From: Lama guanicoe
Taxonomy: Eukaryota
DNA: 42,369 bases
Direction: 5' to 3'
Assembly: GCA_013239625.1 (NCBI GenBank)
Contig: MU053758.1
Span: 3,473,854-3,516,222 of the forward strand
The position numbers and the translations under genes are program-made. Under the pieces are notes generated by a model that saw only the letters and a list, made by a program, of their open reading frames with translations, had not been told where the DNA came from and did no database searches. Of this stretch, positions 5,908 to 42,369 are shown piece by piece; position 1 is the stretch's first letter; every line of letters begins with the position of its first letter.

Positions 5908-6603
5908 CCCTGACCAGGTGCTGATGACCCCCTCTTGTTTATCTTTTGGCCAATTAAGTAGAAATTTGTGTTGACTAATGGATTGCATTGCTGGTGACAT
6001 ACTCATGATCTCATTAAAGAACATTGGTTGCATCCCTAAGTATGGATATATTCATGGTGTTCATCACCAATATCTAAGCACTCTGGGCCATTTGAGGTGA
6101 CAGCAGCTCTTGATGCTTATTTTGAGTAGACAGAACCTGAAAAATCCTGGGCAAAATGGTCTTAAAGGGGCTGGAATTTTTAAAGAAATTGAATGTAGAA
6201 AGGTTTCTAGAGCACTGACTAGATCCTACCCTTGACCCCTAAGAAATCCCCTGAAAAGCCTACATGCGAATCAGACAGGTGTTAGACACAATCTCTGGTG
6301 CAGATTCCTTGAGAAAACATTTACATATCACTTGATATATAATGAAATATACATGCCTTGAATAGTGCTGCCCCTCACATGCTCAGATTAGAAAGGCAAA
6401 AGTTTATTTTTACAAACCAAGTGAGTATTAGAATAAAACATTCAAGACTGCTATCCATTTCTTTTTCTTTTTTCCAGCTCAGGTTGTGGCAACCCTGGTC
6501 TTTCTGGTCACAAAGTGCTGATTTTCTCTGAGGCATGACATTTTTTAATACTTGCTGTTCTTGTATAAGTGATAAAGAATCATGTAATGAGAAGTTTTTT
6601 CTT

Positions 6604-6954
6604 TTTAAATTAAAAAAATTTTTAAATTGTTTTTTGTTGAAGTATAAGTCAGTTTACAATGTTTCTGGTGTACAGCATAATGTTTCAGTCATATATATAC
6701 ATACACATATTCGTTTTCATATTCTTTTTCATTATAGGTTACTGTATGATATTGAATGGAGTTTCCTGGGCTGTACAGTATAAGCTTGTGTTTTATCTGG
6801 GTTTGTGAAGATTCTCCTTGTATTTCCAATGTAGGAGATATTCTGCCAAAGTTCAGCAGGTATTTTGTGTGCATTGTTCCATATGTAGGTGTAGTTTTTG
6901 TTGTATTCATAGGAGAGGGTGAGCACCGTGTCCTACTCCGCCATCTTGGCCTCC
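6604..6954 (-). mobile_element. Mini-L1: ~158 bp of L1 5' end fused to ~190 bp of L1 3' end with A-rich tail and TSD
   Basis: Minus strand starts GGAGGCCAAGATGGCGGAGTAGG...CTCACCCTCTCC, like the L1 5' end at 38661-38700. After the junction at 6797/6796 it matches L1 3'UTR (cf. 9773-9930). Candidate TSD: GAGAAGTTTTTTCTT 6589-6603 / GAGATTTTTTCTT 6955-6967. Confidence 0.8.
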
Positions 6955-7524
6955 GAGATTTTTTCTTAACATACCTTGACAGGAGTGCTACAGCTATGAA
7001 GTGATAAGATGGGGTTTTATTCATCAACCACTGTAGACATATACAATACACTGTTCAAAGGAGGTAGGTTGGGAGACCACGCAGCTGTTCTGTGATGGCG
7101 CTGCTAGAAGGTGATTGGTGAACGTGCTTCTTTGGGAACCGTTGCCACAGGCAGTTGAGAAATTTTATGGGGGAAACAGTCTCGTTACTTTCCAGCTTTA
7201 CTCCTCCTATTATTCACCAGACAGGGTTTTGGATCACTTTTAGTATCATCTCCATCATTCAAGAGAATGTGCCTCAGGACCAGGAGCCAAATGGAATTTC
7301 AAACATGACTTCAAAACTTCAAAAGGGATGTAAATTGACTGAACATATAGTCACAGTTGGGGAAACAAAGGAGGGAGAAATCAAGCATAGTCTCATCGAT
7401 GTAGACCCTCAACTCTCTCTCTCACATTCTGTTGTGCATGGACACTTGTGATTTTTCTCAAAGCAGTAACCACAGCTGAGGTAAAAACTTGAGTATTCTG
7501 CTTCTTTACCCCTTTTCCCCCCAG

Positions 7525-9671: not shown

Positions 9672-9950
9672 ATAGCATAACAAAATTGTGGTTACCAGGG
9701 GGGAAGTGGTGGGATGGAGGGATAAACTGGAAGTTTGTGACTTGCTGATACTAACTACTATATATAAAATAGATAAACAGCAAGGTCTTACTGTATAGCA
9801 CAGGGAACTATATTCAATACCTTGTAATAGCCTATAATGAAAAAGCATATGAAAAGGATTATATGTATGTATAACTGAATTACTGTGCTATACACCAAAA
9901 TTAACACAACATTGTAAACCACCTATACGTCAATCAATCAAACAAACAAA
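9672..9950 (+). mobile_element. 5'-truncated L1 3'UTR (cetartiodactyl type) with (TCAA/ACAA) tail
   Basis: GTGGTTACCAGGGGGG...ACTGTATAGCACAGGGAACTATATTCAATA...ACACAACATTGTAAA. Confidence 0.85.
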
Positions 9951-38645: not shown

Positions 38646-40331
38646 TCATAAGGAGAGAGAGGATGGCGGAGTAGAAGGACGCTCACAGCTCACCCTCTCC
38701 CACAAATGCACCAAGACCCACATCCACAGACCCACTCAGCCAACCAGAGCACCTGCAGAACTCCGAGAGAACATCACCCTCTTCAAAAGATAAAGATGCC
38801 AGAAATCTGGTAGGAGAAAAGGAAAAAAGAAAGAACAAAAGGCAAAGCAGAGCGGGACGGGTCCCGCAGGAAGGGAGCGGCAACGGAGGACTGGTGCTCA
38901 TTAGCTGGGTCTCCCCTCTCCAACTGAGAGGCCAGCAGGACAGAGGGGGAGCCTCTGAGGCTCGGATCTATATGGAGCAGCCTTTGACAGAACTAAGTTA
39001 AACGGGCTCAGAGGGTCCCCCCGACATCCAGCCTGAGACGCGGGCCGGCAGCAGCGGGCAGGCCCAGGCTGCACAAGACGGGCAGAGGACAGGGGTGGCT
39101 GCACTGAGGCAGCCCCGGGGGATCGCAAGGGGCTGCGCGCCATGGCTGTGGGTGTACAGGGCAGAACAATCTGGACCCTCCATAAAACAGCAAAGTTGAT
39201 GTGCCCTGGGGGGAAGGGTGCACACCCCCATCTCTGAAAACCCGCGGAAAGTTTTCAGGGGAAGAGAGGCGGGGCTCAGGCACAGCTGCCATATCCTCTG
39301 GCGCTTAGCACCCAGGTGGGGGCGGGGGCGAAACCTGCATCCGCACCCGAAGGGCTTAGCAGCCTCAAAGGACAGACTGAGACAGGCCTACAGCCCGGGG
39401 CAGATAGGATCCTTCCATCCTGGTCCCTCAGAGAACTTGCTCCACAAAGAAACAAGGAGCTGAGCTTTGGCCCGAGCAGTGACAAGGCTGTCCCTCGGTC
39501 TTCCTGGAACCCACCTGCGGAGCGCCGACCAGGGGGGAGCGCAGACCAGGGCAGAGCGCGCAGCCACACAGATCAGCGGAGCTACCGGGGCAGGTAGAGG
39601 GAGAGCGGCCCCCCGCCTTTTGGTCAGGAACACAGCCCCTGACCAAGGTGCTGGGAGGGGGCACGACCCGCCCTCCTACCCGGCCAGTCTGCAACATCTG
39701 ACTGCGGCATCTGGAGGGGCAGTGACCCGCCCGCCCACAGCAGAGGAGAGCTGCACCTGACCCAGTGTTAGGAGGAGGCGCGATTCGCTTGCGGACAGGC
39801 ACTGGGAGCAGCACAGAAGAGGGCGCCAACGAAGGGCCTCTGAAAACAGCAAGCTGAGTTTCCAAAACAGGACGAAGACAGAAAGACTTCACATTAAAAG
39901 CACACAGACTCCAGGAGAACACCAACAACACCCCCCCCCCTTTTTTTTTAAATCTGTTTTTACCTGTTCTATTTTCTATTACCCTCTTAATTTTTACTTC
40001 TTAATTCATTTCTATTTCTCTTGGGTTTTGATGTCCTGTTATTGATTAGACACAGGTTTCAAATACATCTATTCATCTTCCCTCCCTTTTTTTTAAAGGT
40101 TTTAAAAGGACGGCTCAACCCGATTGATACTCTGCTTCAACTTGCTCTTCTATTATTCATTATACGCTGTTTTCAAACCTTCTTTCTCCCTTCTTTTAAA
40201 ATTCTTTCTCTCTCTCTCTTATTTTTTTCTTTTTGTCCTAAGTTCTATTCCTAAATAGGCATTAGATAGATAAACTCCTTAAGGACCACAATAGATAATT
40301 GATACTCCATAAACCACAGTGCCAGAGAGGT

Positions 40332-41233
40332 ATGAGCAAGATGAAGAAGCAGAGAAACCATTCCCAATTAAAAGAACAAGAGAAATCCCCGAAAGAAAGA
40401 TCAGTGAAATAGATATCGATAGCCTACTAGATCAAGATTTCAAAAAAGGAGTGATCAAATTGTTGAAGGAATTAAAAGAGATAGAGTTTAGAGATATAAA
40501 ATATGTCAAAAATAAAATTGAAGCTATAAAGAAGAGCCAAGTAGAATGGGTAAACTCATTGACAGAGATGAGGAATGATCTAATAGCTGTGCAAAGCCGA
40601 CTACATAATGCAGAGGAACGAATTAGTGATCTAGAAGACAGGACAATAGAAAGCACCCATTCAGAAGAACTACAAGATAAGCAAATAAAAAATAATGAAA
40701 ACAGCATAAGGGACCTATGGGATAATATAAAGCGTCCCAATCTTCGCATAATAGGGGTCCCAGAAGGGGAAGAAAGATCAAAAGGGATTGAAAAGGTTTT
40801 TGAAGAAATCATGACTGAAAACTTCCCAAACTTAAAGAAGGAATCAGATATCCAAGTACAGGAAGCTCCAAGGGTCCCAAACAGGAAGAAACCAAATAGA
40901 CCCACACCAAGACATATCATAATTAAGATGGCCAGAGTCAAGGATAAAGAATTGATTCTAAATGCAGCAAGAGAAAAGCAAAAAGTAAGTTACAGGGGAA
41001 CCCCCATAAGGCTCTCAGCTGCTTTCTCTACACAAACACTACAGGCCAGAAGGGAGTGGCAAGATATATTCAAAGTCTTGAATGAAAAAAAGATGCAGCC
41101 TAGGATACTTTATCCAGCAAGGCTATTCTTAAGGATAGAAAGAGAAATAAAGAGTTTCACAGACAAAAAAAAGCTGCAGGAGTTTAGCAACACTAAACCC
41201 ATGCTAAAAGAAATATTGAAAGGTCTACTCTAA
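40332..41233 (+). pseudogene. L1 ORF1p (coiled coil, RRM, CTD) with a 1-bp deletion near the N-terminus
   Basis: Motifs LWDNIKRPNLRIIGVPEGEE, ENFPNL, PRHIIIK, AREK, ARREW, YPARL. The ATG at 40332/40341 (MSKMKKQRNHSQLKEQEKS) is out of frame with the body; the shift is at the C run 40387-40390. Confidence 0.9.
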
Positions 41234-41639
41234 ATAGAAAAGAAGCAGGATGCTACAGAAATTAGAAACTCACAACTAGAAAGGTGATAACTCATGAATT
41301 ACAAATAAAGAAAACACGAAATTATAAAAGAAGACATACAAATCACTGAGAGTGGGAGAGGGAGGCAGGGAAATACAGAATATAATTTTTTCTTTCTTTC
41401 TTAAATTTTTTTTAATGGTAGGATGGGTTTGAGATCATGTTACTATCAGTTTAACAAGAACAGTTATAGTAATGGGCTAATATATTTACAAAAAAGGGTA
41501 ACCACAAGCCAAAAACTTACAAGGGGTCACAAAAATTAAATAAAATCTATGATAATACAAAGGAAAATTACCAAATCACAAAAGGAAGAAGAAAGGAACA
41601 AAGAGGATATACCAATTAAACTGCAAACGTAAGTTCAAA

Positions 41640-42369
41640 ATGGCAATAAACACACATCTATCATTAATTACTGTAAATGTTAATGGACTAAATGCTCAAG
41701 TTAAAAGACACAGAGTGGCAGACTGGATAATAAAGCAAGAACCTTCAATATGCTGCATACAAGAGACCCATTTTGGGAGAAGGACACATATAGATTGAGA
41801 GTGAAAGGATGGGAAAGGATATTCCATGCAAATGGAAAAGCCAAAAAAGCAGGGGTAGCAGTACTGATTTCAGACAAAATAGACTTTAAAACAAAGGCAA
41901 GAAAGATAAAGAAGGACATTTTATAATGATTAAAGGAGTGATACAAGACGAGGATATTACACTCATTAATATATATGCACCCAATATAGGAGCACCTAAG
42001 GACATACAAGAATTACTAACAGAGATAAAGGGCGATATTGATGGGAATACAATCATAGTTGGAGATTTTAACACCACATTAACATCACTAGACAGATCTT
42101 CCAGGCAGAAAATAAACAAGGCAACAGAGAAATTAAATAATACAATAGAAAAACTAGATTTGGTGGATATTTTCAGAGCACTACACCCCACAAAAAAAGG
42201 ATATACATTCTTTTCAAGTGCACACAGAACATCTTCTAGGATTGATCATGTACCTGGGCACAAAAGAAACCTCAACAATTTTAAAAAGATAGAAATTATC
42301 TCAAGCATCTTTACTGACCACAATGCCATGAAATTGGAAATCAACAACAGAGAAACAAAGGAGAAAAAA
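41640..42369 (+). pseudogene. L1 ORF2p endonuclease domain, frameshifted
   Basis: MAINTHLSLITVNVNGLNA...CCIQETH; relative to the intact copy at 13675-14480 it has a 1-bp deletion at ~41774 and a 4-bp deletion (CATA) after 41898. Confidence 0.9.

Follow-up and report, generated by a model that had tools for sequence, protein, structure and literature searches.

Introduction

A familiar non-autonomous derivative of L1 is HAL1 (half-L1), which carries L1 ends, keeps ORF1 and is kilobases long. Human SpIREs, described for L1PA1 to L1PA6, are spliced L1 RNAs that were retrotransposed, in trans when ORF1p was lost (Larson et al. 2018, PMC5860796). According to that study, they make up 131 of 6,609 full-length copies (about 2%), their junctions (97/622, 97/790 and 97/976) end in the 5'UTR or in ORF1 with ORF2 kept, and they are interpreted as evolutionary dead ends. 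Bipartite LINE derivatives such as RIME, NARTc, Bov-A, RTESINE and WALLSI3 have no ORF and are made up of the two ends of a LINE alone (Kojima 2018, PMC5786205). That work gives them for RTE, Ingi, Vingi and R2 alone and not for L1, ascribes them to internal deletion and treats them as self-propagating families; the string 'splic' is absent from it.

The element considered here lies in a 42,369-nucleotide stretch of the Lama guanicoe genome (the whole stretch analysed, referred to as the window) and belongs to a set of short L1 copies, hereafter called minis, which are 330 to 350 nt long, have no ORF and retain nothing of L1 but its 5' and 3' ends. Minis resemble HAL1 in keeping L1 ends but differ from it in having no ORF and in being far from kilobase length. 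With human SpIREs (PMC5860796) they share a 5'UTR donor, GT-AG, the L1 hallmarks and a repeated origin across subfamilies, and the protein supply in trans which ORF1-less SpIREs need is proposed for minis as well. In contrast to those SpIREs, however, the acceptor of the minis lies in the 3'UTR, so that both ORFs are gone and 330 to 350 nt are left. Their shape, only 5' and 3' ends and no ORF, is that of the bipartite LINEs of PMC5786205, from which they differ by a repeated origin and by failing a one-clade test.

The mini element in the window

On the minus strand of the window, from 6954 to 6604, an L1 5' tip is fused directly to the end of an L1 3'UTR followed by a decayed A tail, as the initial annotation had described (Table 1). 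The insert comprises 351 bases and retains the first ~160 and the last ~170 bases of L1. From the G of GATGGCGGAG at 6945 to the end of the 5' piece at 6797 there are 149 nt, and the letters at the junction are ...AAACCCAG|ATAAAACAC. Of the retrotransposition hallmarks, the target site duplication (TSD) is imperfect: AAGAAAAAATCTC (6967-6955) and AAGAAAAAACTTCTC (6603-6589) differ by a 2-nt indel, with TT on the 5' side, in agreement with the imperfect TSD with a TT/ edge claimed before. An ungapped repeat search of the window did not report this gapped duplication, which is weak taken alone because it is A-rich. No tRNA was found in the window by ARAGORN.

Table 1 Features of the window mini and of the two L1 sequences used for comparison (window coordinates)
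Position	Strand	Feature
6955..6967	-	TSD, 5' copy; imperfect, TT before it (L1 endonuclease-like site)
6797..6954	-	L1 5' tip, 'exon 1', 158 nt; GTAGGA continues here in long parents
6637..6796	-	L1 3'UTR end, 'exon 2'; preceded by TACTAAC...AAAATAG in long parents
6604..6636	-	A/T-rich tail, decayed
6589..6603	-	TSD, 3' copy; longer by 2 nt
38662..38815	+	For comparison: long L1 5' tip, other subtype (apparently younger); homologous donor GT 38810-38811
9749..9778	+	Comparison only: related L1 3'UTR; TACTAAC 9749-9755, homologous acceptor TAG, exon starting at 9773

In the long L1 at 38.6 kb, 148 nt lead from the homologous G at 38662 to the donor GT. All distances, motifs and coordinates previously given for the mini and for both comparison L1s were rechecked and are correct. 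The accompanying caveat that the comparison L1s belong to other subfamilies was right too, the 5'UTR of the 38.6-kb L1 being only 66% identical to that of a true parent; the true parents, i.e. long L1s sharing the mini 5' tip, are located elsewhere in the genome. This L1 of another subtype (window 38650-42369, L082) has a GC-rich 5'UTR, retains the homologous donor and continues past the window edge into an assembly gap of 3.3 kb. An exon pattern of its younger type gave four genome matches, of which the two that were read are unspliced L1 ends, while a tail pattern gave one match, a mutated parent 3'UTR; both samples are small.

Mini copies in the genome

A junction search of the 2.05-Gb genome yielded 5128 candidates, of which the best 40 were scored. 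All 40, including the window's own, match across the junction, and the other 39 show 79-84% identity to the window mini; hence, the junction in the window is not a chance product. Successive genome searches gave 64, 5 and 8 copies after removal of duplicates, i.e. at least 77 minis with the same junction, window copy counted. Of 64 minis, 35 lie between TSD-like repeats with a minimum length of 12 nt; among 186 mismatched flank pairs used as control, 6 show such repeats. Thus, recurrence of one junction at many loci with different TSDs, for which the initial annotation had proposed to look, was found. A rough mark-recapture estimate (36 and 14 copies, overlap 3) puts the total at about 138-140, which is probably low because the patterns favour well-kept copies and few subtypes.

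A pattern lying wholly inside the 5' piece matched 23 loci, namely 14 minis and 9 long L1s. Minis therefore account for 14/23 of the sampled 5'-intact copies (95% CI 39-80%), whereas human SpIREs reach ~2% of full-length copies (PMC5860796). This high share is likely due to the much greater frequency with which an RNA of 330 nt, as opposed to one of 7 kb, is copied completely. Measured by exact genome matches (647 for a 30-nt parent-acceptor pattern versus 28-36 for the junction patterns), minis represent roughly a few percent of all L1 3' ends, the patterns being of unequal length. Among the individual copies, L063 is a 5'-truncated mini and L060 a short-tailed mini with TSD, both of which fit retrotransposition of an RNA already joined.

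Two loci carry further rearrangements. In L210 (G000:C8876, about 7266600-7266820) a tRNA-type SINE is inserted exactly at the mini junction, which is duplicated, and at G000:C5173:4823195-4823900 (L076/L096) a mini and an inverted L1 3' end adjoin tail-to-tail.

Putative splice-site letters in long parent L1s

Of the long L1s with the mini-type 5' tip, 45 were read out to 9-10 kb. Both mini ends occur, in order, inside one ~7-kb element in L067, L069, L070, L071 and others. At the donor position, 39 long copies have GT in 28 cases, AT in 7, another base in 2 and a deletion in 2, where three of the GT readings needed a 1-nt alignment shift and two of the copies, L113 and L114, are near-duplicates; when six long copies chosen by a GT pattern are left out, GT is found in 22/33. 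The acceptor, read manually, is AG in 20 of the 24 long copies with a readable site and the same tail type. It is situated ~170 nt from the L1 3' end and is the first AG past a TACTAAC-like branch motif, 19 nt downstream of the branch A, while a polypyrimidine tract is absent or almost so in the parent letters. In general, an acceptor can be specified by a strong branch point from which scanning proceeds to the first AG. The proposal that the parents have GT and AG at the exact breakpoints hence holds for the majority of these long copies.

The change from GT to AT at the donor (7/39, against a G-to-A background of ~6%; nominal p 0.006, the copies not being independent) is seen in L091, L094, L125, L128, L129, L138 and L140, several of which fall in one subtype clade. 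Possible reasons are that splicing was selected against or that these copies exchanged sequence with minis.

Most of the 5'-intact long copies (L067-L071, L154-L193) have at least one unique internal deletion with short homologies, and only a handful (L070, L156, L159, L177, L186, L187) run through for ~7 kb. In L164, L176, L191, L160, L170 and L181, a 5' part of the mini-parent lineage is accompanied by a nearest 3' tail of another L1 subtype, which suggests chimeras or L1-L1 recombination. L113, L114 and L118 (G000:C868:32000-40500) are three near-identical L1 5' ends within less than 9 kb, a local tandem duplication.

Junction register

The two breakpoints share an imperfect homology of ~10 nt (AAAA, AG, then TA), and microhomology-type internal deletions are present in many long copies. 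For these reasons a template-jump hot spot is a serious rival to splicing, albeit an unlikely one in our judgement: the cDNA end, after the 3'UTR, would re-anneal to the A-rich 5'UTR stretch of the same RNA, giving the mini junction without splicing or trans-mobilization. Against this speaks the register of the junction. In a search with a free gap of 1-6 nt, 28/28 matches had one length, and across 68 minis, some of them chosen by exact junction patterns, 62 are in register and 6 are short by 1-2 nt. The longest exact match of the breakpoints is the A run, and crossover inside it was found neither in the 28/28 nor among the 68 minis. Moreover, the register is kept whether exon 1 ends in CAG, TGG, CGG, CTG or CCA and is therefore independent of the shared AG; it is the same in subtypes with a single shared base, or no shared base at all, at the junction.

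Other internal deletions of the long copies served as control. Each of 30 such deletions (chosen by hand, gaps with inserts or rearrangements being left out) has its own place, which counts against template jumping. None of the 30 is GT-AG in most references, with the L155 junction anchored wrongly and three control junctions being GT-AG in one of 5-6 references. The same crude procedure was positive for 42/68 minis, a score lowered by the fact that one of the two references, L177, has no donor.

The first base past the junction is more ambiguous. G at +1 occurs in 6/36 and 6/28 pattern-picked minis versus 6/100 parent tails (Fisher p 0.08 and 0.02), an excess as expected from crossover inside homology; in the unbiased mini set it occurs in 4/40 versus 6/100 (p 0.47). 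As AG|G is the preferred acceptor context, the excess fits splicing, too.

Splicing is further favoured by L034 (G000:C8676, about 2834400-2835200, minus strand), a longer mini which keeps ~200 nt beyond the first donor. Here, the usual acceptor is joined to a second GT site further downstream, which reads GAGG|GTC in parents, and this use of the same AG by another GT counts against a template-jump hot spot. An exact pattern for second-donor copies had no matches, and among the best 40 of 221 candidates for a 71-nt junction query L034 was the sole one; a second-donor family was hence rejected, and L034 stays a single case. This mini also harbours a tRNA-type SINE, which is flanked by a TSD of its own. 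On the other side, the missing polypyrimidine tract at the acceptor, the breakpoint homology and the richness of the lineage in microhomology-type deletions all argue against splicing.

One founder or many

Minis have a uniform length and separate TSDs, as would also be expected of a SINE-like family in which one founder, arisen by splicing or deletion, was amplified from its own masters. In a tree built from the 5' pieces of 68 minis and 39 long L1s (the 5'-truncated L063 was left out), however, minis interleave with long L1s, with 20 label changes, at least 8 of which are forced by starred branches. Minis were united in 0/200 bootstrap trees, and a single mini clade was rejected by the AU test (p ~1e-79). 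They are thus no one-clade non-autonomous LINE family propagated via its own masters, and a single founder is refuted as sole origin. Several starred subtype clades contain minis beside long L1s, and the closest mini pair is 11.9% different while the closest mini-long pair differs by 13.0%. Given these results, we consider the one-founder family very improbable.

Some clustering of minis is nevertheless seen. Shuffled labels on the 5'-piece tree gave 32 changes versus 20 observed (0/500 as low), with sampling that differed between the mini and long groups, and small mini-only clades in this exon tree, for example L006/L008/L018/L025/L054/L072, are in line with amplification from a mini. The excess of clustering in the exon-only tree may reflect sampling or some re-amplification, and some secondary mini masters may have re-amplified. 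In the exon+tail tree (73 minis and 23 long L1s, without L184, L060, L089, L210 and long copies lacking the same-type tail), 19 changes compare with 21 in shuffles; the bootstraps of neither tree had settled. Exon-tail subtype linkage, compared between minis and long L1s, is weak (r 0.07, permutation p 0.007), and within minis alone it is not significant (p 0.12).

Since minis occur on several L1 5' subtypes, interleaved with long L1s, different L1 masters were most likely spliced repeatedly; to judge from these trees, the junction originated many times, in successive masters across several 5' subtypes. Regarding the splice-derived family that had been suggested for the window mini, the many loci and the GT/AG parents stand, whereas the 'one splice' founder falls with the rejection of the single clade.

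Age of the minis and of the window locus

Divergence from the commonest letter of each column, subtype and CpG sites included, amounts to ~14% for minis and ~16% for long L1s, and to 9% for the window mini; the L1 lineage of the minis is old. The window locus itself is present in DNA runs of five organisms, sequencing runs with small word shares having been left out of this comparison. DNA-run contigs of four organisms cross the window junction with zero differences, and two of them reach the unique 5' flank. An 896-nt RNA-run contig also crosses the junction with 27 differences, i.e. about 3% diverged. As contigs of other organisms, including this diverged one, carry the junction, the short form at the window locus is old. 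Contigs from four RNA runs cover both the window mini and its unique flanks, as read-through or DNA would, and so speak neither for nor against expression or splicing.

These contigs bear on the possibility that each copy arrived long and lost its middle later by DNA deletion. Although internal deletions are frequent in the long copies of the lineage, those are unique, while one nucleotide-exact junction is found at 77 loci, a recurrence which refutes post-insertion deletion. The junction is, furthermore, intact in the contigs of other organisms; a longer L1 at the orthologous site, named beforehand as a result that would speak against a spliced origin, was not seen there. Post-insertion deletion can hence be given next to no credence.

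Proposed origin and relation to known systems

Taken together, these genomic data make it highly probable that minis derive from L1 RNA that was spliced GT-AG with loss of ~6.7 kb including both ORFs and was retrotransposed in trans by the proteins of other L1s that were intact. According to this model, an L1 master would be transcribed from its internal promoter, and a share of its RNA would be spliced by the spliceosome from a 5'UTR donor ~160 nt in to a 3'UTR acceptor that precedes the polyA site by ~170 nt. The acceptor would be picked as the first AG past the near-perfect TACTAAC branch point, almost without a pyrimidine tract. The resulting 330-nt RNA would be capped and polyadenylated and encode no L1 protein, and it could be mobilized in trans by target-primed reverse transcription at TT/AAAA sites. 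Most mini copies would be dead on arrival.

Minis show the SpIRE features of parts lying in order in one parent, GT/AG, retrotransposition hallmarks and occurrence in several L1 subfamilies, but not that of the human SpIRE classes, an acceptor in the 5'UTR or ORF1 with ORF2 retained. Most likely, as far as splicing can be read from DNA, they work like a SpIRE while belonging to none of the three human classes.

A more far-reaching reading regards minis as defective-interfering elements. An L1 lineage would have been spliced from UTR to UTR for millions of years, and the ORF-less RNAs would have relied on L1 proteins supplied in trans, become more numerous than 5'-intact L1 insertions and driven donor loss (GT to AT) in the masters. 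Some would have retained the internal promoter and re-amplified, so that this would be the first splice-born, L1-derived bipartite non-autonomous family. We regard this extended scenario as rather doubtful.

The alpaca Repbase entries ALPINE1 and ALPINE2, which we take to be possibly short camelid repeats, might be the mini set. A literature search on the ALPINE name found no relevant paper, and a search for a 5'UTR-to-3'UTR spliced L1 family found no paper describing one. In the main text of PMC8605555, 'splic' and 'ALPINE' are absent; an entry for minis may exist in Repbase/Dfam or in the repeat libraries of its supplements.

Significance

No host function is suggested for minis. They matter for annotation, where a mini appears as two L1 fragments with no relation to each other. 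Beyond that, they would broaden what is understood as a SpIRE: the human products are rare and keep ORF2, whereas minis would represent a minimal, fully non-coding L1 RNA with dozens of insertions at least and probably more than 100. With only a 5' tip and a 3' tail, minis would constitute a natural minimal substrate for L1 trans-mobilization, and their subtypes a dated series for tracking gain and loss of splice sites in L1 masters. Splicing would then be a way in which bipartite LINE derivatives can arise in L1, for which Kojima (2018, PMC5786205) lists none.
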